This document shows positions 5,298 through 33,574 of a stretch of 64,000 bases of DNA, one piece after another. Numbering within the stretch: position 1 is the first letter of the stretch; each line of letters begins with the position of its first letter. This stretch comes from Escherichia coli. GTDB taxonomy: Bacteria > Pseudomonadota > Gammaproteobacteria > Enterobacterales > Enterobacteriaceae. The DNA is taken from the NCBI RefSeq assembly GCF_030013205.1, contig NZ_CP122648.1. One strand, given 5' to 3'. Both the position numbers and the translations under genes were made by a program. Below the pieces are notes generated by a model that had not been told where the DNA came from, did not search any database, and saw only the letters and a program-made list of their open reading frames with translations.

Positions 5298-5317
5298 AAA
5301 ATCCTTGTTGATGAAAA
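5298..5317. repeat. attL core: left copy of 20-bp direct repeat AAAATCCTTGTTGATGAAAA (native pdxB start GTG-AAA-ATC-CTT-GTT-GAT-GAA)
   Basis: Exact 20-bp repeat also at 32441..32460; the left copy is preceded by GTG and continues the pdxB N-terminal codons (V)KILVDE before diverging into phage DNA. Confidence 0.7.
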
Positions 5318-5395
5318 AAATGATGATTTAATTTATTGATATAAAAGGATTTATATCAGCACGTGTCCACGTAGTGACCACATTTTCGAGTTACA

Positions 5396-5433
5396 GATAA
5401 CACAAAGCCCGTTTTCACGGGCTTTGTGTTATC
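5396..5433. terminator. Long perfect hairpin (16-bp stem), probable bidirectional terminator
   Basis: gataacacaaagcccg / cgggctttgtgttatc inverted repeat just downstream of the minus-strand cargo operon ending at 5463. Confidence 0.5.
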
Positions 5434-5462
5434 TGGATTGTGGCTAAGCCACATGATTTATG

Positions 5463-6356
5463 CTATTTCCAGTTACAAGCAGCTTGAAGTGGTTTTAGCG
5501 CGTTTGACAGGCCGTTTAAATTGAAAGTTGCACTTACAGGGCTCTCATTATAAGGAGTTATTTTTGTATACATTTTGTTTGAGTTGGCTAGTTTTCGGAT
5601 GAAATCAATGTCATTACCTTTATAAAAAACAGCCTTTGTATCTGTAGATACTAGCCAGTTTCGCTCAACTGCTTTCTGTTTATCAAGACGATAAAGCATG
5701 CTGGTTTGTTCAAGGCCTAAATATACATCCCAACTAAGAAATACTTCGGTTTTCTTTTCTCGGCAAGCTATAAACAGAGTGGGAGTAACCGCTTCTCCAA
5801 ATGGAGTTCTGATATAATCATCACTTTCTAACGATAAAATTACATTTTTCGAATCATCAATTGGCGATGTAGTAATGGATGTGTGCCATTTTCCTACATC
5901 TGTGGCTTTCTCTAATTTTGATTCAGCTTGAACAGCTTTATCCTGTGGGAATAGTTTATCGTAGCAGTTTAGTCTGGCTTCTTTATCATTTTCTGCTCGG
6001 CATTTAGATATCTCAGAAAGATTTGGTTGCTGAGCCTCTGTTGTTACTGGCTTTTCCGTTTTAGATTTTGAGTTTACAGATGGAGTAAATGTTGGAGAAA
6101 AAAAACGATCATAACAAGATAAACGTCTGTCATCATCTTTCTCATCAGGGCATTGATCTCTGCTTTCGAATTTTTCAGCAACTTTCGTTCGAGTCGGTTG
6201 TATTGACTTATCGTAACAAGAAAGTCTGTCTTTATTATTTTCTATTGCTCGGCACTGGAGTACTGCATTGAAGTTATTATGTTCAGTTGCTGCGTGAACA
6301 GGCAGTACACTAATTGATATAAATGATGCACCTATAGAAAAAATTATATTTTTCAT
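5463..6356 (-). CDS. Secreted protein with three Cys-containing repeats (RLSCYDK-type) and a C-terminal domain of unknown function
   Basis: 297-aa ORF; N-terminal signal peptide (cleavage near VHA-AT); three ~40-aa repeats each with an R-L-(S/N)-C-Y-D-(K/R) motif; AT-rich, atypical composition; inside the prophage boundaries. Confidence 0.6.
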   Translation of the reverse strand: MKNIIFSIGASFISISVLPVHAATEHNNFNAVLQCRAIENNKDRLSCYDKSIQPTRTKVAEKFESRDQCPDEKDDDRRLSCYDRFFSPTFTPSVNSKSKTEKPVTTEAQQPNLSEISKCRAENDKEARLNCYDKLFPQDKAVQAESKLEKATDVGKWHTSITTSPIDDSKNVILSLESDDYIRTPFGEAVTPTLFIACREKKTEVFLSWDVYLGLEQTSMLYRLDKQKAVERNWLVSTDTKAVFYKGNDIDFIRKLANSNKMYTKITPYNESPVSATFNLNGLSNALKPLQAACNWK

Positions 6357-6360
6357 TTTG

Positions 6361-6702
6361 TTATCCTTTTGGTTTAGTAAGAAATACTAAAATTCCGATA
6401 ATGATATCGCCAATAACCCATAAACTTCCAATGGTAATTAAACCTAAGCCTGTACCAATAACTGCACCGGCTTTTTCGGCATCGGATGTAGCATTATTTA
6501 TTATTTCACTAGTGCCTCCCAGTCCAACTAAAAGCGTATAGATCATAAAAATATTAAATAATATAAATATCCACTTGATGAGCTTTCCAAAAAATGAACG
6601 CTTAAGTTTTTTTATTTGTTTACCGCAAGCAGGGCAATACAATGCTGAATCGCTCACCTCTTTCTGGCATTCAGGACATTTGATTAATGCCATGTAATCC
6701 AC
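6361..6702 (-). CDS. Small membrane protein with N-terminal zinc ribbon (CPEC...CPAC) and two predicted TM helices
   Basis: 113-aa ORF (real start may be the Met at 6690, MALIKCPECQ...); 4-bp gap to the downstream secreted-protein gene suggests an operon. Confidence 0.55.
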   Translation of the reverse strand: MDYMALIKCPECQKEVSDSALYCPACGKQIKKLKRSFFGKLIKWIFILFNIFMIYTLLVGLGGTSEIINNATSDAEKAGAVIGTGLGLITIGSLWVIGDIIIGILVFLTKPKG

Positions 6703-6954
6703 CTCCTTTGGATCAATACGAGTTGATATTTGTTACAAAACATTTTGATTTTATCAGATTTTTTTTTATTGATAAGTGTCAATTGATTAGCTGGTATAGA
6801 GTGAGACATATAGAAGGGCAGATCTGTATCAGTAGTGATGCAAAAATCCCACAGTTTCATGGAATTTTTGCATTTAGAGCCGTGAGATAGGGTGCCTTAT
6901 CGACCTTACCCTGGCAACCGATTGACGGGGGATTACTCCCCCGTCGCGGTTTCC

Positions 6955-7095
6955 TTACTGCTTACACTGTAAGAACGCCGCAAACTCCGCTCCCCAGAAA
7001 CTCATCCGTATTTCGCACAGCGAACCGTGCAACATCCAGATGATGAGGATTACCGTCACGCAGAACGTGATGGCTGTAAGCGATTTTTGCGACAT
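6955..7095 (-). CDS. hok: Hok/Gef-family type I toxin (46 aa)
   Basis: Unlisted short ORF MSQKSLTAITFCVTVILIIWMLHGSLCEIRMSFWGAEFAAFLQCKQ: single TM helix followed by SLCEIR and E-F/V-AAF motifs typical of Hok/Gef; AAGGAG Shine-Dalgarno 9 nt upstream; structured flanks. Confidence 0.65.
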   Translation of the reverse strand: MSQKSLTAITFCVTVILIIWMLHGSLCEIRMSFWGAEFAAFLQCKQ

Positions 7096-7285
7096 AGCAC
7101 TTGCTCCTTTTCCGGAGAGGCGCTAACCTTTCACTTGCTTAGGGTAGACGGTTAGGGCCTCGGTTAAACAAAAGTGTTTTCCGGGGCCTTTCCACATCTG
7201 GCCTTCGGGTATTCCCTCCGACCATCAGCCGAAAGGCACCCGCGCGTAATCTATCGCTTTTTTGTTACTCCGGCAATTCTGCTTG

Positions 7286-7546
7286 TTAATTCTGAGGTAA
7301 AGGCAAACTCATCTGATTGTTTCCCCTGTGTGAAGCTGGTAGCTCATGCCACGGGATACCTTCTGAAGAGTGAACGCCGGAGGCGTGTTTCGATGTGAAT
7401 TTATGGAAAGCTTCCAGTGTTGAGAAGCATACGCCGCATTCCAGATTGTTACACTGGTAATACTTTTGCCGCACGGTGTTTGAATCATTTTCCGGACGAC
7501 TTGTGCGGATACGGGCAGATGCGCCACAAAGCGGACAACGGAACAT
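7286..7546 (-). CDS. ogr: Ogr/Delta-type zinc-finger late transcription activator
   Basis: 86-aa ORF MFRCPLCGASARIRTSR...YYQCNNLECGVCF, with the Cys-X2-Cys...Cys-X4-Cys pattern and N-terminal similarity to P2 Ogr. Confidence 0.85.
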   Translation of the reverse strand: MFRCPLCGASARIRTSRPENDSNTVRQKYYQCNNLECGVCFSTLEAFHKFTSKHASGVHSSEGIPWHELPASHRGNNQMSLPLPQN

Positions 7547-7630
7547 AGCGACCTCCCTTAACGTGGTGTTGCCGCTATTCTAGATTGTACGTTCCCTAAT
7601 TCCAACTAACAGCTCGCTCTGTGCGAAGAG

Positions 7631-7686
7631 TGAAAATTGAACTTTCAATAGTTGTTGAACTTTCATACATCCAATGTGAAAATTCA
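7631..7686. promoter_or_regulatory. Direct repeats (TTGAACTTTCA x2, TGAAAATT x2) upstream of the orphan cargo gene
   Basis: 11-bp exact repeat at 7637..7647 and 7655..7665, plus TGAAAATT at 7631 and 7677, in the AT-rich leader of the 7738 ORF. Confidence 0.35.
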
Positions 7687-7737
7687 TACGTTCATAATAG
7701 TTAAAATTTAAAATATTGTATATCAGGTGAATAAAGC

Positions 7738-8760
7738 ATGGGAAGAGATATAACGCTGTACCCTAAAAAAGCAACTAGAAACGAACTTAAAAATTACCTT
7801 GAAAATTTAGGTTTTAAAAGGTGTAAACATTTGTGGGAATGGCCCCAAGGAACGTTGAATTACTCTTGGTTTGATGATACGGACTTCAAATCTACAGATG
7901 GAGTTTCGGCTGATATATATCCTGTTTCAAATGACGAATTACACATATCTGGTAATAAATGGGCATTGCATGTGCGTAATTTATATAGCGCTAGTTGGCA
8001 TGATGTAAAAATGCTTAATGATGTTCTAAAAGGCGCAAGGAGTCTTTTTGGTGGAACACTTATAGGTGATTATGGGAAAAATAGGTACGCTCCTCTATGG
8101 AAGGATTCTAGTAGTCCGATCAGTCGTGGCATTTCTTCAATATTTAATCATGTCCATCATGAGATTTCCGCTGTTAAACATGCCTTACCTGAACCTTCTA
8201 TTAAATTAAACCTACCGGAAGATGGCGGCTTATCCGAATACTTTGATTACATGCAATGTATGGATCCCAGTAGAGTTATATATAATGGATTAGTACCTTT
8301 TGCGGTTGCTATGTTTGAATACTTTTTCTCTAGAGCTTTTCAAATACTTATAAAGTACGATCCTTTCGCAATAGCAAAAAGAACATCGTATAAGCAAAAA
8401 GTTGATTTTGATATTCTGCTTGAGATAGAGAAAGGAAATATTTCAATAGAAAGTGTTATTGCAAGAAATTACACTTTTCAAAACTTAACCCACCTAAACA
8501 AAGCATATAAAGAGTGGCTGGATATAGATGTGAGAGCGATTCTTTATAAGAAAAAAAGAATTGGAAAATCAGTTGATTTTCTTGAGAATCGAATTTCTGA
8601 AATCATACAATATAGACATGGGATAGTTCATCACTTTGAGTTGGATAGGACCTTAAATCGGGATGGATATATTCATATATTAGATGCGCTAGAAAAAAGC
8701 ATAATTGAATTTATCCATTACATAGAAGGCAAATACAAATTTAAATTAAATGCGTATTAA
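7738..8760 (+). CDS. Orphan AT-rich cargo gene; hypothetical protein with HEPN-like R-x4-H motif near the C-terminus (candidate abortive-infection/defence protein)
   Basis: 340-aa ORF on the strand opposite the flanking late genes D and ogr; low GC; strong start context; C-terminal ...YRHGIVHHFELDRT...; followed by a hairpin. Confidence 0.6.
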   Translation: MGRDITLYPKKATRNELKNYLENLGFKRCKHLWEWPQGTLNYSWFDDTDFKSTDGVSADIYPVSNDELHISGNKWALHVRNLYSASWHDVKMLNDVLKGARSLFGGTLIGDYGKNRYAPLWKDSSSPISRGISSIFNHVHHEISAVKHALPEPSIKLNLPEDGGLSEYFDYMQCMDPSRVIYNGLVPFAVAMFEYFFSRAFQILIKYDPFAIAKRTSYKQKVDFDILLEIEKGNISIESVIARNYTFQNLTHLNKAYKEWLDIDVRAILYKKKRIGKSVDFLENRISEIIQYRHGIVHHFELDRTLNRDGYIHILDALEKSIIEFIHYIEGKYKFKLNAY

Positions 8761-8788
8761 GCAATCAACCTTACATAGGGATGACAAA

Positions 8789-8826
8789 GTCCGCTTCTGA
8801 CACGGAGCGGACCGTCGTTTATGTTT
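8789..8826 (+). terminator. Putative intrinsic terminator after the orphan cargo gene
   Basis: gtccgc...gcggac stem followed by a T-rich tract (cgtcgtttatgttt). Confidence 0.4.
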
Positions 8827-8880
8827 AATTCTATACTGTAAACTTGCCAGTTTAAGTTTGAGCTAATATGTCTAAGTTGC

Positions 8881-9990
8881 TCACTCTGTTTCTGCTATCC
8901 ATTCCGGGATTTTTGCCTCAAGCTCAAGCTGTGTGGTAAAGCCGCTGTTATCAATGGTGTGCTCGGCTTTCGCAATAATCCAGTCCTGATTATCAATCTC
9001 GCTTTTAAATCCTGTTACCGTGCCATGCATTTCGGGGTAGAGTTCTGCACGTCCACGCACCAGCGTGATGGAAAACGATGCGGCTCCGCGTTGTAGCTGC
9101 TGCCACTTTGCCGCCGCTGCGCGTCTTGCTGCCTGCTCGTTCTGATAAGTCTTGCGTAACACAAACACATTGCCTTCCGCGCCTTCCATATAATCACCTT
9201 CACGGCTGCTGCTTTTCTCCTTTTTGGGTTTTGGCGGTTTGCGGCGTTTCACGCTGACTTTTTTCTTTTTCCCGTAATTAAGATCAAGCCAGTAAGCGCG
9301 TACCCCCGTATACGCCTCGCGGTCAGCAATGCGGAACTGATGGCGATCGCCGCTGCTGCGTGTGATGGCGAACGATGGCAACGGCTGGCCCTGTGCGTTC
9401 ACGCCACCGCCGGGCATGATGAATAACAGATTACCGCTTTTTACCGTGGTGATTGCGCCCAGCATTTCCGCCATGCGCGTAAGGAAGGACATGTCGCTTT
9501 CTTCAGTCTGGTCGGCGTGGTCGATTTCGATATCCATCAGCATTTCGCTGATTTGCGGTTTCAGGCCGTACCGATGAGCGATGGCGGATACCACACGTTC
9601 AACGGTCACATCATGCCAGGACGCCTCACGTTTAACATTAAATTCATCCCGAAAATCTGCGCTTCTGGCTGAAACAGTCAGCCTGTCCGGCGGTCCTTCG
9701 TGAGCGATTTCATCAATAATGTAAGTGCCTTTTTCTGTCAGCGGTTCCCCTTTCCAGCCAATGAGAACCGTCAGACGCGCGCCCCGTGGCGGTAGCTGCA
9801 ACTGGCCATCGGCATCATCCAGCGTGATGGTGAGCTGGTCCGCCTCAAATCCCCGGTTGTCGGTCAGTGACAGGCTCATCAGGCGTTCTGCCACGCCGGA
9901 CAGCGTTTTACCCTCGGCGAGAATATCAAAATCCGGCATTTTCACGGGGTCTGTGCCCTGACTGAGCAATTGCATGGTGGTGTCGGTCAT
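8881..9990 (-). CDS. P2 gpD-like tail protein (late control gene D family)
   Basis: ORF 8881..10122; likely true start is ATG at 9990, preceded by GGGAGGG (MTDTTMQLLSQGTDPVK...); Lys-rich central stretch and overall gpD-like size. Confidence 0.75.
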   Translation of the reverse strand: MTDTTMQLLSQGTDPVKMPDFDILAEGKTLSGVAERLMSLSLTDNRGFEADQLTITLDDADGQLQLPPRGARLTVLIGWKGEPLTEKGTYIIDEIAHEGPPDRLTVSARSADFRDEFNVKREASWHDVTVERVVSAIAHRYGLKPQISEMLMDIEIDHADQTEESDMSFLTRMAEMLGAITTVKSGNLLFIMPGGGVNAQGQPLPSFAITRSSGDRHQFRIADREAYTGVRAYWLDLNYGKKKKVSVKRRKPPKPKKEKSSSREGDYMEGAEGNVFVLRKTYQNEQAARRAAAAKWQQLQRGAASFSITLVRGRAELYPEMHGTVTGFKSEIDNQDWIIAKAEHTIDNSGFTTQLELEAKIPEWIAETE

Positions 9991-10147
9991 CTGTTCCCTC
10001 CCTGTGCGGCATGGTCGCATGTGCGTGCGGAGGGGGTTACTGCTTTTTGTTGTCGCCGTGGCGGGAGAATAGCGCAGGGGTGAGATTACGCGCGTGGTGG
10101 GTGATGATTGTTGCTGAATCATTTAACGGATACAAGGGGCTGAAGCT

Positions 10148-11332
10148 ATGAGTGAAACTCGTTTTCATGGTGCCCGTGTTACGGAAAATACCGACCTGGT
10201 AACAGCGATTAACGATGTTGATTCCAGCGTTATCGGTATCGTGGCAACGGCGGATGATGCGGACGCGAAGCTGTTCCCGCTGAACAAGCCCACATTGCTG
10301 ACCCGCGTCAATGACGTGCTGGGAAAATGCGGAACAACGGGGACGCTTTATCGTGCGCTTAAGGCCATCGCAGACCAGGTGAGCACAAAGGTGATCGTCG
10401 TTCGCGTGGCTGAACACAAAGAAGAAGACGGAAAGACGCAGGATCAACTGGTTATCGGTGGTTCTGAGGATGACGGCAGCTATACGGGGATGTATGCGCT
10501 GCTTGTTGCAGAGCAGGATGAAAGCATCGGATACCGTCCGCGTATTCTGGCCGCGCCGGAGCTGGACACGGAGGCTGTAACAAAATCCCTGTGCGTGATT
10601 GCAGGTAAACTGCGCGCGTTTGTGTATGCCTCATGTCACGGCTGTAACACGATGGCTGAGGCGATTACCTACCGCCAGAAATTCAACGAACGTGAGGTGA
10701 TGCTCTTATGGCCGGACTTCATCGCCTACAACCCGAAAAGTGGCAAAAACGAAACGTTCCCCGCGCCTGCCTATGCGTGCGGCCTTCGTGCGTACATTGA
10801 CCATGAGCAGGGCTGGCACAAATCGCTGTCCAACGTTCCGGTTAAAAATGTGCTGGGGATGTCCAGGCATGTGTTCTGGTCGTTGCAGGCCGAAGACAGT
10901 GATGCCAACAGCCTCAACAACAAAGAAATCACGACCATTATTCGTCGCAACGGGTTCCGCTTCTGGGGCAACCGCACACCGGAAACGAACGCCTACATCT
11001 TTGAGGTGTATACCCGAACCGCACAGGTGCTGGCTGATTCAATTGCGGAAGCGCAGTTTGAAACCATCGACAGTCCACTGACGCCTGCGAACGTGAAAGA
11101 TGTTATCAGTGCCATCAGGGCAAAACTGGATTCACTGGTTACTGCCGGGAAACTGATTGGGGCGTCGTGCTGGTATGACGTGGTGGATAACGGCACCACG
11201 AATTTACGTCAGGGGCGCGTGCGTATTCGCTACAAATATACGCCTGTTCCCCCGCTGGAAGACATGGAGCTTTACCAGTCGTTTACTGATGAATTCTTTG
11301 GTCCCGCATTTGCGGTGCTGGGAGGTGCCTGA
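10148..11332 (+). CDS. Contractile tail sheath protein (P2 gpFI-like)
   Basis: 394 aa; aligns by eye with P2 FI (FPLNKP, CxKLRAF, IRRxGFRFWGNRT, YxYTPVPPLE motifs). Confidence 0.9.
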   Translation: MSETRFHGARVTENTDLVTAINDVDSSVIGIVATADDADAKLFPLNKPTLLTRVNDVLGKCGTTGTLYRALKAIADQVSTKVIVVRVAEHKEEDGKTQDQLVIGGSEDDGSYTGMYALLVAEQDESIGYRPRILAAPELDTEAVTKSLCVIAGKLRAFVYASCHGCNTMAEAITYRQKFNEREVMLLWPDFIAYNPKSGKNETFPAPAYACGLRAYIDHEQGWHKSLSNVPVKNVLGMSRHVFWSLQAEDSDANSLNNKEITTIIRRNGFRFWGNRTPETNAYIFEVYTRTAQVLADSIAEAQFETIDSPLTPANVKDVISAIRAKLDSLVTAGKLIGASCWYDVVDNGTTNLRQGRVRIRYKYTPVPPLEDMELYQSFTDEFFGPAFAVLGGA

Positions 11333-11844
11333 TGGCTGTACCAAAACATCTTCGCTTTTTTACGCTGTTTGTGGATGGTGAAAACGAAGTGGGTAAGGTG
11401 ACGTCCGTCACTCTGCCTAAGCTGACGCGCAAAACCGACAGCTACCGGGGTGGTGGCATGATGGGTGCGGTAAGTATTGATCTCGGTCTGGACGACTCCG
11501 CGCTTGATGCGAGCTTTGTCATGGGGGGCGCAGTTCGTGAGCTGTTCCTTAAGTATGGCGGCACGATTGACGGCACGCTGCTGCGTTTTGCGGGTGAATA
11601 CTACACCGATGCAGAAAGCGACCTGTATGAAGTCGAAATGCGCGGACGTGTGACGGAAATTGATATGGGGGAAGCCAAACAGGGCGAAGCCACATCACAC
11701 ACTTACGCCATTAAAAACACCTACTACAAGCTGAGTGTTAACGATCGCCCGTTGTGGGAGATTGACCTGCTGAACTTCATTTACCGGAAGGACGGCAAGG
11801 ACATTGTGCCCGATCGCATCCGTTCCGCGCTCGGGCTTGGCTGA
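11332..11844 (+). CDS. Tail tube protein (P2 gpFII-like)
   Basis: 170 aa, immediately after the sheath gene with overlapping stop/start (ATGA). Confidence 0.85.
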   Translation: MAVPKHLRFFTLFVDGENEVGKVTSVTLPKLTRKTDSYRGGGMMGAVSIDLGLDDSALDASFVMGGAVRELFLKYGGTIDGTLLRFAGEYYTDAESDLYEVEMRGRVTEIDMGEAKQGEATSHTYAIKNTYYKLSVNDRPLWEIDLLNFIYRKDGKDIVPDRIRSALGLG

Positions 11845-11899
11845 TAAGTAATATGCAGGCGGCGCAGTGCGTCGCCTCTGACTGAAAAGGAGACAACTG

Positions 11900-12274
11900 A
11901 TGAAAGACATCGATACTGAAACCCGGAATAACACCGTGGCGGATGATGTGACGGCAGGTGAGGATATGGCTGTCGAACATGGCGTAAAACTGACCCGACC
12001 AATTGAGCGTGGTGGCGAAAAAATCACGTATGTGGAGATCACCGGGGCTATTGAACAGGCTGGATCCCTGCGTGGTCTGTCGCTGTCTGATGTGCTGAAT
12101 CTGAAAGCGGATACCATGTTCACGCTGTTGCCTCGCGTGACCTCGCCACGACTGGATGAAGTGATGATTAAAAAAATGTCGTCACGCGATTTTATTCAGT
12201 TGTGCGCTGTGGCTGTAAATTTTATGAGCGAGCCAGACTCTGGCGCGAAGAGCGTGCAGGAGACGGCAGCGTAA
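11900..12274 (+). CDS. Tail assembly chaperone (P2 gpE-like)
   Basis: 124-aa ORF between tube and tape-measure genes, with an overlapping -1 frame ORF (E'). Confidence 0.75.
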   Translation: MKDIDTETRNNTVADDVTAGEDMAVEHGVKLTRPIERGGEKITYVEITGAIEQAGSLRGLSLSDVLNLKADTMFTLLPRVTSPRLDEVMIKKMSSRDFIQLCAVAVNFMSEPDSGAKSVQETAA

Positions 12275-12438
12275 TCACCCTGGTGTGCTTTGAGCACATC
12301 GAAGATCTGGTGGCAGATATCGCCGCCATTTTTAACTGGTCGCCCGCCGAAATCTTCATGATGACGCCCGGCGAAGTGGTTAGCTGGCGTGAGCGGGCGG
12401 CACTTCGCAGCGGGAATGCAGACAATGAAGACTCTTGA
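12202..12438 (+). CDS. E' extension, -1 frame of the tail chaperone (predicted E+E' frameshift product)
   Basis: ORF in the -1 frame overlapping the 3' end of E; candidate slippery heptamer A-AAT-TTT at 12217..12223 in the E frame. Confidence 0.5.
   Translation: MRCGCKFYERARLWREERAGDGSVITLVCFEHIEDLVADIAAIFNWSPAEIFMMTPGEVVSWRERAALRSGNADNEDS
12217..12223 (+). promoter_or_regulatory. Candidate programmed -1 ribosomal frameshift site (AAATTTT)
   Basis: XXXYYYZ heptamer inside the E/E' overlap, in the correct phase for E to E' slippage. Confidence 0.4.
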
Positions 12439-15232
12439 CATCCGGGTCGCTTTCAGCGCCGTTGACAGGCTGACCCGGCCTGCCGAAAACGCCCGCCGCC
12501 TGATGGGGCAGTTTGGTGACTCCATCCAGCGAACGCAGGGGGCGATCAAAAATCTCGAGCGTCAGGCGCGTTCATTTGAGCGCGCCCGTGACGCTGTCAG
12601 TAAAGCGGATGCTGGCATATTGAAAGCACGACGCCAGCTTAACGCCCTTAATCAGTTACAACGCACGGGTACAGTGCTCAGCGAAAAACAACAAAAGCTG
12701 ATGCAGCAGTTAAGCACCCGGCTTGAACGCCTGAATGAATCGCGCACACGGGAAATTCAGAAAATGCGGGAGCTTGGCGGAGAGCTGAAACGCCACGGCA
12801 TTTCCCTGACAGGCAGCGATAACACCATCCAGCAGGCCATCAGACGCACCGAACAGTACAACAACCAGCTTGAACGCGAACGGCAGGCGCTTGCGCGTGT
12901 AACACGGGCGCGTGAGCGGTATTCGCGCGCGCAGGAAACAGCGGGAAAACTGAAAACAGGTGGTGCGCTGGCAATTGGTGCGGCAACGGCGGGCGGCTAT
13001 GCTGCCGGGCGTTTTTTGCAGCCTGCGATCGGGTTCGGCAAAGAGATGTCCCGCGTTCAGGCACTGACGCGAATCGACAAAAACAGCCCGCAGTTTAAGG
13101 CGCTGCGTGAGCAGGCGTTAAAACTTGGCTCTGAAACACAGTTTACTGCGAGTGATGCCGCCAGTGGGCAGAGCTTTCTGGCAATGGCTGGTTTTACTCC
13201 GCAGGCCATTCAGGCCGCATTGCCCGGTGTTCTTAATATGGCGCTGGCAGGTGGCGTCGAACTCGGCGAGACGGCTGATATAGGCTCCAATATCCTCACA
13301 CAGTTCAACCTGACAGCCGATCAAATGGACCGTGTTGGCGATACGCTGACAGCAGCATTCACCCGGACCAATACTGATTTACGCGCGCTGGGCGAAACCA
13401 TGAAGTATACCGGTCCGGTTGCCGCAAAACTTGGTATCAGTCTTGAAGAAGCGGCGGCCATGGCCGGGATGCTTGCCAATAATGGTCTTCGCGGAAGCGA
13501 TGCTGGTACGGCCATGCGCGCAAGTCTGTCCCGCCTTGCATCACCGCCAAAAGCTGCGGCTGATGCACTGAAAGAGCTGGGGGTGTCAGTTGCTGACGCC
13601 AGAGGCAAAATGCGCCCGATGGAGGATGTGCTGCTTGATCTCTATAAGGCGACACAAAAATACGGACAGGTGGACCAGGTTTCCTTCTTCAAGGACATCG
13701 CCGGAGAAGAGGCGTTCGTTGGTTTGCAGACGCTTGTTGCGGCGGCTGGTTCAGGAGAGCTGCAAAAACTGACCAGAGAATTGCAGGGGGCAAGGGGAGA
13801 GGCCGATCGCGTCGCAAAAGTAATGGCCGATAATCTTGATGGGGACCTGAAAAATCTCGACAGCGCATGGGAAGGTCTTCGTATTCGCATCAGTGATCTG
13901 GTTGACGGTCCGCTGCGTTCTGTCACGCAGTGGCTCACGCGGGTGCTTGAAAAAATCACCTCGCTGGCGCAGGCCCATCCGGTACTGACGCGCCAGCTAC
14001 TGATAGCAGGCGGTGCGTTGCTGGCAATGACTGCAACGATTGGCTCGTTGTCGCTGGTTATTGGGGTGCTTTACGGGAAGCTGGCCACCCTGCGTCTTGG
14101 TTTTGACATTCTTACCCGGTCAATGAATGTCGTCAGGGTGTTGCCTGCGCTGTGGGGAATGGTGACGGGTTCCGTTTCTTTACTGGGAGGCGCCATCGGG
14201 GCGTTGTTCAGTCCGGTTGGTCTTATCGTGGCTGCGCTTGCCGGAGCTGCCGTTCTTATCTGGAAATACTGGGATCCCATCAGGGCATTTTTTGCCGGGG
14301 TGTTCAGCGGGATTATGGAAAGGCTGACCCCGTTGCGCGAAACCTTTGAACGGTTTGGTCCTGTTTTTGACACAATCGGAAGCGGGATCAGCCAGGTGTT
14401 TAACTGGTTTAAATCGCTGCTGTCACCGATGGAGTCCAGCAAGGAAACGCTGGATAAATGTACCAGTGCTGGCGAGATATTCGGTAACGTTCTTGGCGGT
14501 GCGTTACAGCTTGTTCTGACACCTGCAAAAATGCTACTGGATACGCTGGCGTGGATACTTGAAAAACTTGGCGTCCTTCCGGATGAAGCGGAAAGGGCGC
14601 GCAAGAAAATCGAAGACGCACAGCGTGCGGCCATTCTTCAGGACAAGGTTGTCTTGCTTCAGGGTGACCTGGCGAAAATCAATCCGCCGAAGCCTGTGGA
14701 AAATGGCAATGGCACCGGAGGTAATAAACCCAAAGACAACAAACCGCTCACAGACAGCAATACCGGGACGCTACGCAGACTCAGCAAAATTGCTGATAAC
14801 ACAGGTAAGCTGGTTGATGAGACGAAAAAACGCATTGGCCCCGGCGATATTGTCTTTAAGAACCTGCCCCGCGCACTTGCTGTTCGTGGAGAGTGGCAGG
14901 AGCGGAAGATTGCGCAGGTCAGTAAGCCTGCCCCCGCAATTAATATCACACCCGTGGTCCCGGCTCCGCTGCCTCCGGCGCTGGTCCCTGTTGTTGCGGC
15001 CAGCTCCCGCCCGGTGGCGGAGGCCATACGATCTCCAGTGGCATCAGTTCCTGTAACTTCCCGTAACCGGGAGCCTGTTGCCTCCGGATTTGGTGGTGAA
15101 ATTCATGTTCATCTGCATAACGTTGTTACGCAGAATCCCCGCGAACTGGCGAAACTGGTCGGTGAAATGGTCAGGGCAGAAATGGAACGGCGCGCCCGTG
15201 CCGGGCGTGGCAGTTTTTACGATAAAGATTGA
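12389..15232 (+). CDS. Tail tape measure protein (P2 gpT-like)
   Basis: 947 aa, long coiled-coil-rich N-terminus and C-terminal hydrophobic segments, position after E/E'; true start probably a downstream Met (12416 or 12425). Confidence 0.85.
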   Translation: MSGRHFAAGMQTMKTLDIRVAFSAVDRLTRPAENARRLMGQFGDSIQRTQGAIKNLERQARSFERARDAVSKADAGILKARRQLNALNQLQRTGTVLSEKQQKLMQQLSTRLERLNESRTREIQKMRELGGELKRHGISLTGSDNTIQQAIRRTEQYNNQLERERQALARVTRARERYSRAQETAGKLKTGGALAIGAATAGGYAAGRFLQPAIGFGKEMSRVQALTRIDKNSPQFKALREQALKLGSETQFTASDAASGQSFLAMAGFTPQAIQAALPGVLNMALAGGVELGETADIGSNILTQFNLTADQMDRVGDTLTAAFTRTNTDLRALGETMKYTGPVAAKLGISLEEAAAMAGMLANNGLRGSDAGTAMRASLSRLASPPKAAADALKELGVSVADARGKMRPMEDVLLDLYKATQKYGQVDQVSFFKDIAGEEAFVGLQTLVAAAGSGELQKLTRELQGARGEADRVAKVMADNLDGDLKNLDSAWEGLRIRISDLVDGPLRSVTQWLTRVLEKITSLAQAHPVLTRQLLIAGGALLAMTATIGSLSLVIGVLYGKLATLRLGFDILTRSMNVVRVLPALWGMVTGSVSLLGGAIGALFSPVGLIVAALAGAAVLIWKYWDPIRAFFAGVFSGIMERLTPLRETFERFGPVFDTIGSGISQVFNWFKSLLSPMESSKETLDKCTSAGEIFGNVLGGALQLVLTPAKMLLDTLAWILEKLGVLPDEAERARKKIEDAQRAAILQDKVVLLQGDLAKINPPKPVENGNGTGGNKPKDNKPLTDSNTGTLRRLSKIADNTGKLVDETKKRIGPGDIVFKNLPRALAVRGEWQERKIAQVSKPAPAINITPVVPAPLPPALVPVVAASSRPVAEAIRSPVASVPVTSRNREPVASGFGGEIHVHLHNVVTQNPRELAKLVGEMVRAEMERRARAGRGSFYDKD

Positions 15233-15238
15233 GGAGTC

Positions 15239-15733
15239 ATGGCCATGATGATGATCTACGGCATGTTTGTTTTTGAGCTGCGCACGCTGCCGCATCAGCA
15301 GTTACAGCAAAACAAAAGCTGGCGGCATGTGAAAAATGAACGCGTTAACCGTTCAGCAAGCTGGCAGTATATCGGTGCAGGTGATGATCGCATCGTTCTT
15401 TCTGGTGTGCTTTATCCTGAAATTACAGGTGGCGAAGTGTCGCTGTCGCTGCTGACCACGCAGGCGTATACAGGACGCCCCTGGCCTCTTATTGATGGCG
15501 TCGGGCAGATTTACGGCATGTATGTCCTGACCGAAACGAATACGACCCGTTCCGAGTTTGATCGCTACGGTAAGGCGAAAAAGATAGAATTTTCACTGAC
15601 CCTTGAACGCTGTGATGAGGATTTGCGGGAGCGCCTGCAATCCTCATCGTTCAGCGATATGCTGTCCGGCTTCAAAGATAAAGTGACATCATCCCTTAAC
15701 AGCGCGGCCAGTTCAGTTAAAGGGCTGTTCTGA
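15239..15733 (+). CDS. Tail protein (P2 gpU-like)
   Basis: 164 aa MAMMMIYGMFVFELRTLPHQ...; N-terminal similarity to P2 U; directly follows the tape measure gene. Confidence 0.75.
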   Translation: MAMMMIYGMFVFELRTLPHQQLQQNKSWRHVKNERVNRSASWQYIGAGDDRIVLSGVLYPEITGGEVSLSLLTTQAYTGRPWPLIDGVGQIYGMYVLTETNTTRSEFDRYGKAKKIEFSLTLERCDEDLRERLQSSSFSDMLSGFKDKVTSSLNSAASSVKGLF

Positions 15734-15903
15734 TTTAATGCTGGCCACTCATACCCTCATACCTGGTAATAAGTGGCCAGTCTTAACACTCACCATTTGA
15801 TTGCACCAGTGTTAACGATTTGTTACTGGACATCAGGCACGCTGGATAGCCAGTAGAAACATACCATTAAAATTATTACAATAATTGGTCACATGATTAT
15901 CTT

Positions 15904-16467: not shown

Positions 16468-17048
16468 CCCTGATTCATCAGCTCTGGCCATACGATATCC
16501 GGAGCTGTACTGGTGTCAATTCTACTCACTAATACTCTGTATTTTCTCCAGGAATCCAGTTGTGAATTTTCCTCGTTTGTTGCTATTTCAAGATTAACTG
16601 CATCCTGCAGAATTGCGATGTTATCTGTTGCTTCCTGGATCAACCTTGCCTTTTTCTCTTCCGCTTCCCGTATCCGAAACAGTTTTTCTGCTTCCTCATC
16701 CTTCACCCAGGATACGCCGTCCCACTTCTGATACTCCCCTGCTGGCGACAACCAGGTGACATTCTCTGGTAGCGGTCCGGGTTCAGAAATAAACAACGCG
16801 TCCCCCGATGCCACGTCATAGACCGTTTTACCACGATGGTCTTCAACAATATTCCACGATTCATTTTCACTGTTAAAAACTGCCACAAAGCCAGCAGGAA
16901 TTTCCGGTGGGGCGATATCTGTAGAATTGGCTGGCAGCCCTGTATGAGGTGGAATATATGCGTCACCTTCACCAATAAACTCATTAGTTCCGGCCAGCAG
17001 GTTATAAATTTTTACAGTACGTGATTGTTCACTCATTCTGAATGCCAT
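16431..17048 (-). CDS. Tail fibre assembly protein (P2 gpG / Tfa family)
   Basis: 205 aa; typical Tfa N-terminal region; start overlaps the stop of the upstream tail-fibre fragment (TAATG). Confidence 0.8.
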
Positions 17049-22966: not shown

Positions 22967-23278
22967 TTACTCAGGAAATAACGCCCGGATATTCCCAGCC
23001 ATCTGGCTGGTTATCTTAGCCACTGGTGCAGACTGTGCTTCAAACTTTTTTGAGCTGATTTGTGTCACAGGTAACATCTCATCATCAGCCCATGCGGCCA
23101 GTCGGTAAGCCTCTGCCGGATTCGTCTTCAGAAGTGCCAGCCCGGCCAGAAAAGCCACGCGTTGGCCGCTTTTGCGGGCTTCTGGTGTAAGGCTGTCCAG
23201 CCAGGCGCATGCTTCTCCTTCGTTCTTGACGGCAGCTGGCTTCAGATAGAAACTTATCCGTCTGGTTGGTGTTGTCAT
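22967..23278 (-). CDS. parR: ParR-like centromere-binding adaptor
   Basis: 103 aa from the ATG at 23278, preceded by AGGAG 7 nt upstream and only 4 nt after the parM stop; resembles R1 ParR (RRISFYLKP...LDSLTPEARKSGQRVAFLAGLALL). The longer annotated ORF 22967..23413 overlaps parM and is rejected. Confidence 0.7.
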   Translation of the reverse strand: MTTPTRRISFYLKPAAVKNEGEACAWLDSLTPEARKSGQRVAFLAGLALLKTNPAEAYRLAAWADDEMLPVTQISSKKFEAQSAPVAKITSQMAGNIRALFPE

Positions 23279-23282
23279 TGGT

Positions 23283-24242
23283 TTACTCCTTGTCCATTGC
23301 GTACAGCCCATTAACCAGAGCAAACTGTGGCACCCCGTCCGCGATGAAAGTCGCATTAACTCCGCAGGCTTCGCGGATAGCGGGTGCCACAATCTCCGCC
23401 CCGCCACCGACAACCATCACCCGCCCGTAACCCGAAAAACCCGCCAGCGCGCGGATCACGCGTTGTTTCAGTGTTTCTTCCTTTTCACGAATAACCGCCA
23501 TCAGGCTGGCGTAATGCGCGTCATTGTGGATGTGCTGGCGCAGCCAGGCTTCATCATGGCGATGTTCGATAATGGTATTGGCGATGTGGTGACTGGTACG
23601 CATACCGTTAGTGGCCATCACCGACAGTACGGCATCGGCCATCAGGGAAACGCCTACGTGTGGATCGCAAAACACCTGGCTGATACCTGCCAGTTGTCCC
23701 TGAACCTTTGCCACATCCAGCGTGGTTCCGCCTAAATCCACAATCAGCAGGGATTCAAACGGACTCATGTCAGCCAGTGCTTTAAAGCCAGCCGGAATGG
23801 ATTCAGGCATAACCCGTACGTTACGGATAGTGAATGCTTCGCCGTTCTGGTACTCCACCGGGCGCATGACGTTCGCTTTTTTGCGGTTGATGTTGGCCAT
23901 GTCCGGCTGTGCGTTTGTGTCGAAATATTCGCTCAGTGGCAGGGTGACAACCACATCCACTTCCTGTGGTGTGATGCCTGATTTGACCAGCGCGTGATGA
24001 ATGGCAATGACATTCACATCGCTGTACTGGTATTGCGTGTCGGTCGTCTGGACAAAGCGATCGCTGACCGGATCAAAACCATAGCGCACGCCATCAAGCA
24101 TGTAGTTCGCGGGCTGCGTGCCACCGAACGGCGCAGACCATTCCGACTTGAAGCTGTTCGGGCTGATGGCGTTGCGGCGTTCGCCGTTCTCAGTCCATGC
24201 CAGCTTGATGTTGGTGGAGCCGTCATCGATACAAATTTTCAT
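23283..24242 (-). CDS. parM: ParM/StbA-family actin-like segregation ATPase
   Basis: 319 aa MKICIDDGSTNIKLAW...SPNSF...VMPESIPAG...LIVDLGGTTLD...VMVVGGGAE; close to plasmid R1 ParM along the whole length. Confidence 0.85.
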   Translation of the reverse strand: MKICIDDGSTNIKLAWTENGERRNAISPNSFKSEWSAPFGGTQPANYMLDGVRYGFDPVSDRFVQTTDTQYQYSDVNVIAIHHALVKSGITPQEVDVVVTLPLSEYFDTNAQPDMANINRKKANVMRPVEYQNGEAFTIRNVRVMPESIPAGFKALADMSPFESLLIVDLGGTTLDVAKVQGQLAGISQVFCDPHVGVSLMADAVLSVMATNGMRTSHHIANTIIEHRHDEAWLRQHIHNDAHYASLMAVIREKEETLKQRVIRALAGFSGYGRVMVVGGGAEIVAPAIREACGVNATFIADGVPQFALVNGLYAMDKE

Positions 24243-27147: not shown

Positions 27148-27513
27148 TTACTTCGTCATGCCATTCAGGGTGTCGCGGCAGACTGTAGCCAGCCGCTGAA
27201 TTTCCAGCACGGTGTCTTCTGTGTCGGCATGGCGATGTGTGATGCGGATGCTGTCGGCAATCACATCGACGATTGCAGAGGATGGGCGCTGGTAAATGCC
27301 AATAACGGACGGGGTGCCACCTTCAATGCGGTAAAGCCTGTAATTTCCCTCGTGGCTGTCAATCATGTAGCGACCATCAATAACAATCTTTCCGTCAGCG
27401 AGCTGCGGTACAGGCAGGGATTTCAGGTACATGTCATAACGATCACGCACGCGAGCGGCAAGATCACGCTCTGTGTTGAGCAGGTATTCAAGAAAGTCGT
27501 TGGCGAGAATCAT
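27148..27513 (-). CDS. Early-region hypothetical protein
   Basis: 121-aa ORF immediately upstream of the A-like gene, same strand. Confidence 0.5.
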   Translation of the reverse strand: MILANDFLEYLLNTERDLAARVRDRYDMYLKSLPVPQLADGKIVIDGRYMIDSHEGNYRLYRIEGGTPSVIGIYQRPSSAIVDVIADSIRITHRHADTEDTVLEIQRLATVCRDTLNGMTK

Positions 27514-27585
27514 TGCGGCAATCCTCTTGTTACAGATGTGCGAAGGCCTCCCGCCGCAAGGTGCAGGAAAGGCCCGGAACAGGAA

Positions 27586-27816
27586 TTAATGGAGTTTGTT
27601 TTGCTGCTGGATGAGCTGTTGAAGCTCGTGCAGATCATCCGCCAGATAGCTGAAAACAGAGGCGGAATAAATGTTTGATAGTGCGTGGCTGCGCTCATGC
27701 AACATATTGATGTGCATGATTTGCGCGACGCGTGATGCGCGGGAAAGTCTGCGGTTGATTTCAGTCTGGATGTGACGACGCTCCGCGATAGCGCGGTGTG
27801 GTTTGCGGTTTGCCAT
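27586..27816 (-). CDS. Early-region hypothetical small basic protein
   Basis: 76-aa ORF with an AAGGGG Shine-Dalgarno upstream. Confidence 0.45.
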   Translation of the reverse strand: MANRKPHRAIAERRHIQTEINRRLSRASRVAQIMHINMLHERSHALSNIYSASVFSYLADDLHELQQLIQQQNKLH

Positions 27817-28138
27817 GGTGTGGCCCCTTGTGTAGTAAGTTGTGAAAACTCACCATCCAGAGCTGCGAAACTGTGGGTGGCGAGACGTACGAGGTTCGCA
27901 GTACCGGCTACACAAGAACCCGGCCCGACCGAAGTCGGCCCCGTACGCCCCGCCATAATTCTGACGCGAAAAAAACGTGGCAATACAGTACGCACAAAAA
28001 AACCGCTGGCGCGGTTGTGCGCTTGTGTAGTCAGCAGGCTGCGAAACCCGGCACCCGTTTTGTGAGGTGCAGCGGAAATGTAACCTGACTGATTGCGGCA
28101 TGGCAAGCGGTTTTTTTGTGTGTGCATGTTCTGGTTTC

Positions 28139-30429: not shown

Positions 30430-30435
30430 TTATGA

Positions 30436-30723
30436 CTAAAGTCCCAGCCACAACAACCATGCGTCGCGGCGTTCTTTCGGTTGCTCAAAAAACGCTTTGC
30501 GCATGCCTTCGTTAAATGCTGGCAGATATACCCAGTTTTCTGATGCACGCGTCTTTACTGAACCTGGTTTCACAAAGTCAATTGTTGGTAGCTTTGCTGC
30601 GTCAATCATGGTTCTGACTGTGGATTCCTTGCGGCCGATCATCTTGGCGAATAGTTGATATGGCACCGCTTCAAGTGGATATGGTGCTACCTGAATGAAC
30701 CCCCCAAGCTCTGATTCGCTCAT
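30436..30723 (-). CDS. cox: Cox-like excisionase / early repressor
   Basis: 95 aa; ...YQLFAKMIGRKESTVRTMIDAAKLPTIDFVKP...WVYLPAFNEG...RRDAWLLWLGL matches P2 Cox (YWVYLPAWNNG...RDGWLMWLGL). Confidence 0.85.
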   Translation of the reverse strand: MSESELGGFIQVAPYPLEAVPYQLFAKMIGRKESTVRTMIDAAKLPTIDFVKPGSVKTRASENWVYLPAFNEGMRKAFFEQPKERRDAWLLWLGL

Positions 30724-30782
30724 TGTGGTAATCTCCCTAATTCGTTCGAATGGCTCAAAATGGCTTATATCGGCTTATTTGA

Positions 30783-31157
30783 GTGTTTTTATGTTTGTGC
30801 CCGATGTGGCATGTTGTGATGGAGGATATGCCCGATATGGCATCTTTGTCAAGCATGGGTGAAAAATTTCGCCTGATTCGTGAAGCAGAAGGTATGACCC
30901 GCCAGGAGTTTGCGGATTGTGTTGGGCTGCCTTATGGGACGGTAACTAACTATGAGGTGAGGGGGAAGCAAGTAACAGAGGGTGCCTTACTTAAGGTTAC
31001 GAAACACCCTAAATTTAAGAAGTATGCTTATTGGTTATCAACAGATGAAACGATGCCGGAGGTCGGGCAAATTTCTCCGGCTCTCTCTCTTGATGGTTCC
31101 TGCAATTCGGAGGGAGATCGCGTTTCAACCGAAACAATCCAAAAATTATCCCGCTGA
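30783..31157 (+). CDS. Immunity repressor (P2 C-like)
   Basis: HTH region ...QEFADCVGLPYGTVTNYE... and C-terminal ...KYAYWLSTDE...VGQISPALS resemble P2 C; true start probably an internal Met (about 30837). Confidence 0.75.
   Translation: MFLCLCPMWHVVMEDMPDMASLSSMGEKFRLIREAEGMTRQEFADCVGLPYGTVTNYEVRGKQVTEGALLKVTKHPKFKKYAYWLSTDETMPEVGQISPALSLDGSCNSEGDRVSTETIQKLSR
30799..30843. promoter_or_regulatory. Putative C-repressor operator: 14-bp direct repeats GCCCGAT(G/A)TGGCAT in the C/cox switch region
   Basis: Repeats at 30799..30812 and 30830..30843 between divergent cox and C; P2 C is known to bind direct repeats at the early promoter. Confidence 0.45.
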
Positions 31158-31253
31158 GGCCAGAAAACTGGTTAGACCTGCTTTTTGTCTGGTCTGATTA
31201 TTGCTGGAAAGAGGCTGGAGAAATTGTAGAGCGGTTCATTGGAGGGCTTCGTA

Positions 31254-32258
31254 ATGTCGATTAAGAAGCTCGAAGATGGTCGTTATTTGCTGGACATCAG
31301 GCCGAACGGACGCAAGGGAAAGCGCGTGCGTAAGGTATTTGACAAAAAATCGGTAGCGGTGGCCACTGAACGCTACATCATGGCGAACGCTGAAAAGCGG
31401 GAATATATACAGGGCTACCGTGATCGTCGAACGCTAAATGATTTGCTTGAGTTGTGGTGGATGTATCACGGCCAGCACAGGCGTAAGGCGGAAGAAGACC
31501 GAAAACAACTGCGCAACATAATCAATGAGCTTGGCGCTGATATGCAGGCTGTGGATCTTGATAAGCTGAAAATTATCGCGTGGCGTTCTCAAAAGATAGC
31601 TGATGGATTGAAACCGTCATCTGCTAACAGGTACATGAATCGGTTATCCGGAATGTTTACCGTGCTGAAAAAAATAGGTCTTTGGGATGCAGAACATCCA
31701 GTAAGGGGAATTTCTATTCTTTATGTATCTCCACGAGAAATGGCGTTCCTGTCACAGAAGGAAGTGGCGCTATTGCTCGATACACTGGAGGGCGACTACT
31801 GGCGTGTTGCGCTTTTGTGTTTAAGCACAGGGGCGCGCTGGAGTGAAGCTTGTAAGCTTCGTGGTGAACAGATAGTTCATAACCGTGTAACGTTTCTTGA
31901 AACCAAAAATGGCCGGAAGAGAACAGTGCCAATTTCGCAGGCAGTTTGTGAGGCGATCAAAACCAGAGAAACAGGCGGCTTGTTTGAGGTGAAGTACCGG
32001 GAATTCTGCCTGGCGCTGAAAAGAGTTAAGCCCGATTTACCAAAAGGCCAGGCTGCACATGTGCTGCGGCATACGTTCGCCAGCCATTTTGTGATGAACG
32101 GAGGAAACATTATTGCGCTTCAGAAGATTCTTGGTCACGCAACCATTCAGCAAACAATGGCATATGCGCATTTTGCACCGGATTACCTGCAGGATGCGGT
32201 GGCCCTTAATCCGCTGAAAGGTGGCGTAAGTGTCCACGCAGTGTCCACGGGGGATTAA
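31254..32258 (+). CDS. int: Tyrosine integrase (P2 Int-like)
   Basis: MSIKKLEDGRYLLDIRPNGRKGKRVRKVFDKKSVAVA... is close to the P2 Int N-terminus; C-terminal region has HxxR and a catalytic Tyr context; adjacent to attR. Confidence 0.9.
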   Translation: MSIKKLEDGRYLLDIRPNGRKGKRVRKVFDKKSVAVATERYIMANAEKREYIQGYRDRRTLNDLLELWWMYHGQHRRKAEEDRKQLRNIINELGADMQAVDLDKLKIIAWRSQKIADGLKPSSANRYMNRLSGMFTVLKKIGLWDAEHPVRGISILYVSPREMAFLSQKEVALLLDTLEGDYWRVALLCLSTGARWSEACKLRGEQIVHNRVTFLETKNGRKRTVPISQAVCEAIKTRETGGLFEVKYREFCLALKRVKPDLPKGQAAHVLRHTFASHFVMNGGNIIALQKILGHATIQQTMAYAHFAPDYLQDAVALNPLKGGVSVHAVSTGD

Positions 32259-32416
32259 TTTTATATAGCCTGAAACGGCTTAAAGGGCGATACTGAATAA
32301 CAATTTTTCAGTATTGCCCGTCTAAATGGTTATGTTGTTATCTGTATGATTATTAATGTTTTTTCAGATTAAACAGCAGTTTGCAAATGGGCGTTTGTTG
32401 ATAAAGGAGCCTTAGA

Positions 32417-33574
32417 TTGTCAGAGACTGAAAAAGGGTTAAAAATCCTTGTTGATGAAAATATGCCTTATGCCCGCGACTTATTTAGCCGTTTGGGTGAG
32501 GTGACCGCGGTTCCCGGGCGTCCAATCCCCGTGGCTCAACTGGCAGACGCGGATGCGCTGATGGTGCGTTCGGTCACGAAAGTGAATGAATCTTTGCTGG
32601 CAGGAAAACCCATTAAATTTGTTGGCACTGCCACCGCGGGGACCGACCATGTCGATGAAGCGTGGTTAAAGCAGGCGGGAATTGGTTTTTCCGCGGCACC
32701 AGGCTGTAATGCGATTGCGGTGGTGGAATATGTTTTCTCCTCACTGCTGATGCTTGCCGAACGCGATGGATTTTCACTGCGCGAGCGTACCGTGGGGATC
32801 GTGGGCGTTGGTAACGTTGGTCGGCGTTTACAGGCACGACTGGAAGCGTTAGGGATTAAAACCTTACTTTGCGATCCGCCTCGCGCCGACCGTGGGGATG
32901 AGGGTGATTTCCGCTCGCTGGATGAATTAGTTCAGCATGCGGATATTCTGACTTTCCATACGCCACTCTTTAAAGATGGTCCGTACAAAACGCTACATCT
33001 GGCGGATGAAAAACTGATCCGTAGCCTGAAGCCCGGAGCGATTCTGATTAACGCCTGCCGTGGCGCAGTCGTCGATAATACTGCCCTATTGACCTGTCTG
33101 AACGAAGGCCAGAAGTTAAGCGTAGTGCTGGATGTCTGGGAAGGCGAACCGGAACTCAACGTGGAATTGCTGAAAAAAGTGGATATCGGCACGCCGCATA
33201 TCGCAGGCTATACCCTGGAAGGTAAAGCACGCGGTACTACGCAAGTGTTTGAAGCCTATAGCAAGTTTATTGGGCATGAACAACACGTTGCGCTGGATAC
33301 GTTGCTGCCCGCGCCAGAGTTTGGCCGCATTACGCTGCATGGTCCGCTCGATCAACCGACGCTGAAAAGGCTGGTGCATTTGGTGTATGATGTGCGCCGC
33401 GATGACGCACCGCTGCGTAAAGTCGCCGGAATACCGGGTGAGTTCGATAAGCTGCGCAAAAACTATCTTGAGCGCCGTGAATGGTCATCTCTGTATGTGA
33501 TTTGTGATGACGCCAGTGCGGCATCATTGCTGTGTAAACTGGGTTTTAACGCCGTTCATCATCCGGCACGTTAA
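32417..33574 (+). CDS. pdxB: Erythronate-4-phosphate dehydrogenase with phage-supplied 5' end
   Basis: Body matches PdxB ([15 protein letters not shown]...); here the reading frame starts at TTG 32417 behind an AAAGGAG Shine-Dalgarno in phage DNA, giving MSETEKGL + KILVDEN... Confidence 0.85.
32441..32460. repeat. attR core: right copy of the 20-bp direct repeat, inside the pdxB 5' coding region
   Basis: AAAATCCTTGTTGATGAAAA identical to 5298..5317. Confidence 0.7.

Follow-up and report, generated by a model that had tools for sequence, protein, structure and literature searches.

The stretch of Escherichia coli DNA analyzed here (64,000 nucleotides of contig NZ_CP122648.1, RefSeq assembly GCF_030013205.1; hereafter the window) carries a defective P2-like prophage of the Xuanwuvirus/P88 type, 27.1 kb in length (5318-32440), that has integrated between flk and pdxB, inside the first codons of pdxB. 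The native start of this gene of vitamin B6 synthesis is left at one end of the prophage and the rest of its coding sequence at the other, where phage DNA would supply a new Shine-Dalgarno (SD) sequence, a TTG start codon and eight N-terminal residues. We assign a probability of about 0.78 to the whole account, namely integration, a functional 385-residue PdxB headed by the phage SD and TTG, and transcription from phage-derived sequence. The original prediction, made from the letters of the window, is confirmed in what it observed and supported in how it interpreted the locus. The re-heading of pdxB is already known from a 2019 publication on ΦSM, a near-identical phage (Magaziner et al. 2019, J Bacteriol 201:e00638-18; PMC6456863). 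The present analysis adds a defective copy from swine enterotoxigenic E. coli (ETEC), a conflict between the published -10 element and the SD, a probably closed-off attL side and a rival promoter-like element at the junction. If the account is right, this is a clean case of a phage that replaces the 5' end of a host gene, including promoter, ribosome-binding site, start codon and N-terminus, and not the usual 3' end.

Integration within the first codons of pdxB

The insertion is delimited by a 20-bp direct repeat, AAAATCCTTGTTGATGAAAA, whose copies at 5298-5317 (attL) and 32441-32460 (attR, where it forms codons 2-8 of pdxB) are spaced by 27,143 bp. They are the only copies in the window, even when up to two mismatches are allowed, and a shuffled-sequence control returned a match in 0 of 100 cases. 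To represent the empty site, a composite flk-pdxB sequence devoid of the insert was searched in 5426 complete E. coli genomes, 5122 of which matched it end to end with identities of up to 100%; in the one unoccupied genome that was examined, pdxB is annotated with a GTG start and 378 residues. The phage arm, that is, the 182 bp directly upstream of attR, is present in only 303 of the 5426 genomes, so that the arrangement has a frequency of around 5.6% among complete E. coli genomes. The confinement of the arm to these genomes, together with the empty sites, indicates that the sequence upstream of attR is phage-derived and not native, and, as 5122 and 303 account for 5425 of the 5426 genomes, the phage family is essentially the sole occupant of the flk-pdxB site.

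The free phages complete the picture. Indeed, their attP consists of the left side of attR, the core and the right side of attL, with both arms present in Chuche and P88_4B11, and the attP of ΦSM matches the same arrangement as far as the end of its record; in P88_4B11 there is one mismatch inside the core (GAGGAAAAT vs GATGAAAAA). The joining of the two arms through the core in free phages thus represents formal proof of recombination between attP and attB, and, judged from these junctions, the insertion is a site-specific integration by a tyrosine integrase. In the proposed mechanism, a temperate Xuanwuvirus phage of the P2 family, akin to P88_4B11, PhiR44_2, Chuche and the Citrobacter phage ΦSM, would have recombined the core of its attP with the identical 20 bp of pdxB. 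An assembly artefact and a native upstream sequence were considered as well, and are ruled out by the 5122 empty sites and the free-phage attP. The repeat had been proposed as the mark of the crossover, and it proves to be unique to the two prophage ends and to match the attP of free phages; the comparison with an unoccupied flk-pdxB locus, which had been set as a test, has shown in 5122 empty sites that the sequence upstream of attR is not native there.

Both arms carry short tandem repeats that, by analogy with the layout of the P2 attP, may be arm-type integrase (Int) binding sites. In the P' arm, the candidate site is GTGTCCACG-ta-GTGACCACA (5363-5382, plus strand), and in the P arm it is GTGTCCACG-ca-GTGTCCACG (32230-32249, plus strand), which falls in the 3' end of int. 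Exact copies of GTGTCCACG occur in the window at 5363, 32230 and 32241 only.

The stranded native start at attL

The flk gene, on the minus strand, ends at 5196. The native flk-pdxB intergenic region (5197-5294, plus strand), with its weak SD, is joined to pdxB in the 5122 unoccupied genomes and is here cut off from the body of the gene. The original pdxB promoter is reported to lie in this region (work of Schoenlein and Winkler). Downstream of it, the orphaned native start (5295-5339, plus strand), whose GTG is the annotated start in the unoccupied genome, reads GTG(5295) AAA ATC CTT GTT GAT GAA AAA AAT GAT GAT TTA ATT TAT TGA, i.e., GTG and 13 further codons before the stop, translated as VKILVDEKNDDLIY*. 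The claim that the native start runs into phage DNA and stops after 14 codons is borne out by this translation, and so is the claim that the native promoter and GTG are left 27 kb away from the gene, the promoter being placed according to that earlier work.

About 80 nt past the orphaned start there is a hairpin formed by a perfect palindrome of 19 bp (5394-5434), GC-rich in its core and bordered by T-rich sequence, with predicted folding energies of -34.5 kcal/mol on the plus strand (z -8.0) and -36.9 kcal/mol on the minus strand (z -9.7). This hairpin is probably a bidirectional terminator, which would end both the cargo operon inside attL and any transcript initiated at the stranded pdxB promoter. 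According to the proposed mechanism, the native promoter, weak SD and GTG would therefore head nothing but a dead-end open reading frame (ORF) of 14 codons, followed by this strong hairpin.

A predicted phage-derived translation start at attR

At the other end of the prophage, the P arm provides an SD sequence, AAGGAG (32404-32409, plus strand), followed after a spacer of 7 nt by TTG TCA GAG ACT GAA AAA GGG TTA (32417-32440, plus strand), which encodes (M)SETEKGL in frame with the repeat and with pdxB. The resulting chimeric ORF (32417-33574, plus strand) has 385 codons for amino acids. The nearest in-frame upstream stop is the TAA at 32402, which makes TTG the sole start candidate within the phage-derived stretch. 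The predicted duplex with the 3' end of 16S rRNA amounts to -7.9 kcal/mol for TTG, as compared to -3.8 kcal/mol for the native GTG and +0.4 kcal/mol for the internal ATG at 32462-32464 (plus strand), which is the native Met9 and the start of a 370-residue product. Across 11 aligned attR and attP sequences, from nine diverse lysogens and two free phages, the SD, the TTG and the frame are unchanged; the eight-residue extension shows two missense substitutions only, and every indel lies upstream. In the proposed mechanism, translation would start at the phage TTG and give a functional enzyme with the phage-encoded N-terminus MSETEKGL.

The chimeric protein matches the Salmonella PdxB structure 3OET at E = 8e-227, the Pfam 2-Hacid_dh match opens at fusion residue 12 (model position 3), and in an AlphaFold model of the fusion (predicted local distance difference test score, pLDDT, 96.5) the first core strand, β1, is formed by residues 9-13 (KILVD), with the eight-residue extension modelled at low confidence. 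Conservation was evaluated in a diverse set of 72 PdxB homologues (41-52% identity), in which the KI[VL][AV]DEN motif is strongly conserved, with the Asp found in 70 of them. Between 1 and 11 additional residues precede the motif in 28 of the 72, so that an extension of eight residues does not exceed natural variation; 3-6 additional N-terminal residues are also present in the solved structures 3OET and 5DT9. An identical 385-residue chimera is already present in NCBI and UniRef as PdxB, seen on 200 contigs. When the first 61 residues of the chimera were used as a homologue query, only short PdxB fragments devoid of the extension were returned. The arm pattern AAGGAGNCTTAGATTGTCAGAGACTGAAAAA gave no matches in a contig scan with one genome per species and was found in two IMG/VR contigs, one of which was examined and is an ordinary attR junction with an E. 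coli-type pdxB.

A different product is obtained if transcription starts within the junction. The element TTGTCA-17-AAAAAT (32417-32445, plus strand), a consensus match spanning phage and pdxB sequence, would start RNA at around 32452, downstream of the TTG, so that the phage extension would never be made and the 370-residue PdxB would be translated from the ATG at 32462. The consensus scan gave no other promoter-like match near attR on the plus strand, and by position weight matrix (PWM) score the element is among the 13 best of that strand in the whole window. The ATG is the start chosen by the NCBI Prokaryotic Genome Annotation Pipeline (PGAP) in strain K_EC180 and in 6 of 8 other lysogens examined. 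Nevertheless, matches of this quality are expected by chance about once per 5 kb, and the ATG would have a leader of only about 10 nt and no SD. In addition, as β1 and the KI[VL][AV]DEN motif precede the ATG, a start there would delete the conserved core strand together with the beginning of the Pfam catalytic domain, and Met9 is not a conserved alternative start, since the corresponding residue is Ile in 55 of the 72 homologues. We consider this alternative unlikely. Ribosome binding, the structural model and conservation all make the phage TTG a better start candidate than the internal ATG. The original prediction of a phage-supplied ribosome-binding site, TTG and eight codons in frame with pdxB has therefore held, in the form of the 385-residue ORF, and its reading that pdxB depends on phage sequence is supported by the stranded native promoter and GTG, the energy of the phage SD and the in-frame TTG.

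In the free phages, the same SD and TTG open a 21-codon ORF across attP, found at 3719-3784 and 3720-3785 in the stretches of P88_4B11 and Chuche that were examined, respectively. The two ORFs end at the same TGA despite differences between them, and this TGA falls within a palindrome, TGATATAAAAGGATTTATATCA.

Transcription of the re-headed gene

With the native promoter left behind, the pdxB transcript would have to originate in the phage DNA that precedes the SD. The immunity repressor gene C (helix-turn-helix; 30837-31157, plus strand) is the first gene of the C-int operon and is followed by the intact tyrosine integrase gene (31254-32258, plus strand; 334 residues, identified by its translation and by NCBIfam tyrosine-recombinase matches). 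Both genes are on the pdxB strand and oriented towards pdxB. P2 lysogens transcribe the C-int operon. A terminator scan from int to the core found no terminator-like site. Just past the int stop codon there is a 13-bp hairpin (32285-32319, plus strand; -21 kcal/mol, z -4.1), conserved in all relatives examined; it was considered as an intrinsic terminator and rejected, because it has no U-tract and was not called by the scan, so that it may be at most an attenuator. Read-through of the C-int operon from Pc is the most likely source of the pdxB transcript, with weak promoters in the AT-rich P arm as the alternative or as a possible addition. The candidates among the latter have predicted transcription starts at 32343-32357 and scores no better than background.

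A putative promoter has been proposed for ΦSM on the basis of phiSITE motifs, together with the in-frame TTG and the AAGGAG SD (PMC6456863). In the window, its σ70 elements correspond to TTGCAA at 32381-32386 and to a -10 element TAAAGG at 32402-32407, the mRNA being translated through AAGGAG and TTG. A TG one base upstream of TAAAGG resembles an extended -10 and TTGCAA is invariant in the alignment. However, the spacer is only 15 nt long, the -10 element does not have the conserved final T, and by PWM the promoter does not rise above background, as one strand of the window holds about 2390 matches that score as well or better. Moreover, TAAAGG (32402-32407) overlaps AAGGAG (32404-32409), and a transcript starting at around 32414 would be devoid of the SD. 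As a result of this overlap, the proposed promoter and the proposed ribosome-binding site are mutually exclusive, and we regard this combination as highly improbable.

Read-through from Pc leads to a broader, rather doubtful proposal, namely that the pdxB-usg-truA-dedA operon has become a 3' extension of the Pc-C-int immunity operon and that the pdxB-proximal arm works as a "metabolic anchor" for the prophage. If so, B6 synthesis would be coupled to the lysogenic state and would drop when Cox shuts off Pc, and an imprecise deletion of the pdxB-proximal arm would produce a B6 auxotroph. The anchor would also explain why the int-attR end is intact in remnants that have lost 11 kb of structural genes.

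Relation to ΦSM and function of pdxB in lysogens

The closest described system is ΦSM (Shae_phiSM, OR565851), a Citrobacter rodentium phage that shares with the window prophage the att core, the P arm with AAGGAG and TTG, and a P2-like genome. Its att site was described as 17 bp, ATCCTTGTTGATGAAAA, just inside the pdxB gene of K-12 (PMC6456863), and sits within the 20-bp repeat counted here. The two differ in that ΦSM is intact, inducible and 36.8 kb long, whereas the window copy is a 27-kb remnant, and the cargo adjoining attL is partly different. The lost start codon is an ATG according to the published description (PMC6456863), while both this strain and the unoccupied genome examined have GTG. 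MG1655(ΦSM) was found to grow in M9 glucose like the wild type, and it was concluded that pdxB is functional (PMC6456863).

These results bear on the possibility that pdxB is effectively silenced in the lysogen, the strain salvaging B6 vitamers in the pig gut, and that the SD and TTG are a coincidence of the attP arm. The arm would in any case be bound by constraints on the binding of Int and integration host factor (IHF), ΦSM does not use pdxB in its native host, and the 21-codon ORF that the SD and TTG head across attP in free phages exists independently of pdxB. Salvage of B6 vitamers is a known ability of E. coli. On the other hand, MG1655(ΦSM), which grows like the wild type, has the same arm; the pdxB ORF is intact, with neither frameshift nor stop, in the window and in all sampled lysogens; and occupied sites are seen in 303 genomes that represent many lineages and hosts. 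Silencing is therefore judged to be very unlikely.

Several points do weigh against expression of a functional 385-residue PdxB from phage sequence. TTG is a weak initiation codon, and PGAP annotates the ATG start in about 31 of 40 sampled lysogen rows, extending pdxB into the phage arm (TTG, 385 residues) in about 9 of the 40; RefSeq is thus inconsistent, with two pdxB starts for the same locus, of which the 370-residue choice would lack β1. The best σ70-like match near the junction, TTGTCA-17-AAAAAT, starts RNA after the TTG, and the stable 13-bp hairpin after int could attenuate read-through. For ΦSM, neither transcript mapping nor the protein N-terminus is reported (PMC6456863). Furthermore, ΦSM sits in a traF-like gene in C. 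rodentium, so that the SD and TTG are not necessarily an adaptation to pdxB. As the arm differs by 0-5% among the relatives found, the invariance of the SD and TTG is inseparable from recent common ancestry, and with arm identities of 95% or more among all relatives there is no power to test selection on these elements by divergence. Finally, we infer from sequence both the use of TTG as the actual start and the source of the transcript.

Comparison with other integration systems

Prophages that preserve their target gene are well known. In particular, for the lambdoid phage 21 and the element e14 in icd, and for the integrases of P4 and Fels-2 that act on genes for tRNA or transfer-messenger RNA (tmRNA), the attP copy restores the displaced end of the gene. 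ΦNP, which integrates in ssrA, is a further tmRNA-targeting example of a preserved target gene (PMC6456863). All these elements swap the 3' end, so that the native promoter, ribosome-binding site and start are kept, whereas the window prophage swaps the 5' end; replacement of the 5' end means that the signals for initiation of both transcription and translation must be phage-derived. A second group, known from "active lysogeny", integrates site-specifically into coding sequences, such as φ10403S in comK of Listeria, SPβ in spsM of B. subtilis and skin in sigK, and precise excision restores the gene. These elements inactivate their target until excision, while pdxB is predicted to be on in the resident lysogen, as shown for ΦSM.

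The window prophage resembles P2 in the order cox, C, int and attP, in the orientation of int towards attP, in the tandem arm repeats and in the position of ogr beyond attP. It differs in its integrase gene, which has around 70% DNA identity over a third of its length to the Wφ/P2 group, and in its target, since P2 uses locI-type sites and the window prophage the 5' end of a coding sequence.

The prophage, its defects and its cargo

The prophage is classified as P2-like (Peduoviridae, Xuanwuvirus). Swine ETEC strains, K_EC180 and ETEC4067 among them, have an essentially identical prophage sequence and flanks. In the flk-pdxB interval of K_EC180, PGAP annotates ogr, gpD, tail sheath, tail tube, E, tape measure and U, then scaffold, large terminase, portal and ParM-type partition genes, and lastly replication endonuclease A, cox, a helix-turn-helix repressor and the integrase. 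The cox gene, encoding the excisionase and early repressor, corresponds to 30436-30723 on the minus strand (Cox family DNA-binding protein according to PGAP). Over the prophage, the window and K_EC180 (NZ_CP062203.1) differ by two single-base indels, one between 6700 and 7285 and the other restoring the frame of the integrase, which is annotated as frameshifted in K_EC180. By BLAST, P88_4B11 aligns to the prophage in five collinear blocks of 92-98% identity. The stretch 31200-32440, with int and the arm, is covered in full by P88_4B11 (99.8%), PhiR44_2 (98.3%), ΦSM (96.9%) and Chuche (92.2%), and the integrases of Wφ and SEN4/5 show around 70% DNA identity over only part of the gene.

A deletion scar lies at 15739-17387, where 1.65 kb, holding an acetyltransferase gene and tail-fibre fragments, stands in place of about 11.4 kb of P88_4B11. 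The lost stretch (4860-16256 of P88_4B11) includes the capsid C-terminus, small terminase, head completion, lysis, baseplate, tail fibre and invertase functions; in the K_EC180 locus, the genes for the capsid and the tail fibre are partial pseudogenes according to PGAP. The prophage does not have the full P2-type set of morphogenesis and lysis genes. With the loss of structural and lysis genes over about 11 kb, the window copy is, by its predicted gene content, a non-infective, defective remnant of the family, with int and cox intact. Only 7 genomes, each of them from swine ETEC, contain the deletion junction (16900-17900). The acetyltransferase gene within the scar (15904-16467, plus strand) encodes a hexapeptide-repeat O-acetyltransferase, related below cutoffs to EpsC, CysE and WcaB, and may be a conversion gene that modifies a surface polysaccharide.

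Additional cargo is found at the attL end. Just inside attL there are two genes on the minus strand, one for a 297-residue protein (5463-6356) and the other for a 113-residue zinc-ribbon protein (6361-6702). The C-terminal part of the former resembles the VasI/TagO proteins associated with type VI secretion systems, with 75.9 bits against an NCBIfam cutoff of 124, and a PADLOC search of the cargo ORFs, this pair included, gave no matches. Relatives differ in what they carry between attP and ogr: Chuche has a methyltransferase and Com there, and P88_4B11 has two extra genes. Adjoining ogr, a Hok/Gef-family toxin gene lies at about 6955-7095 on the minus strand (PGAP annotation of the identical K_EC180 locus). 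Between ogr and gpD, a 1.3-kb insertion (7583-8870) that is absent from P88_4B11 contains an ORF of 340 residues (7738-8760, plus strand), whose product has neither a PADLOC nor an NCBIfam match.

ParM-type plasmid segregation genes (22967-24242, minus strand) are located between the cos end and gene A and are present in P88_4B11 too. In the early region, matches at the Rfam gathering level to C4 antisense RNA (27873-27960, 83 bits) and to the Hfq-binding small RNA isrK (27996-28070, 64 bits), both on the minus strand, overlap a 205-residue ORF (27510-28127). The prophage is also present in ETEC B7A (NZ_CP035812.1), where an IS1A element is inserted near the flk/attL junction.

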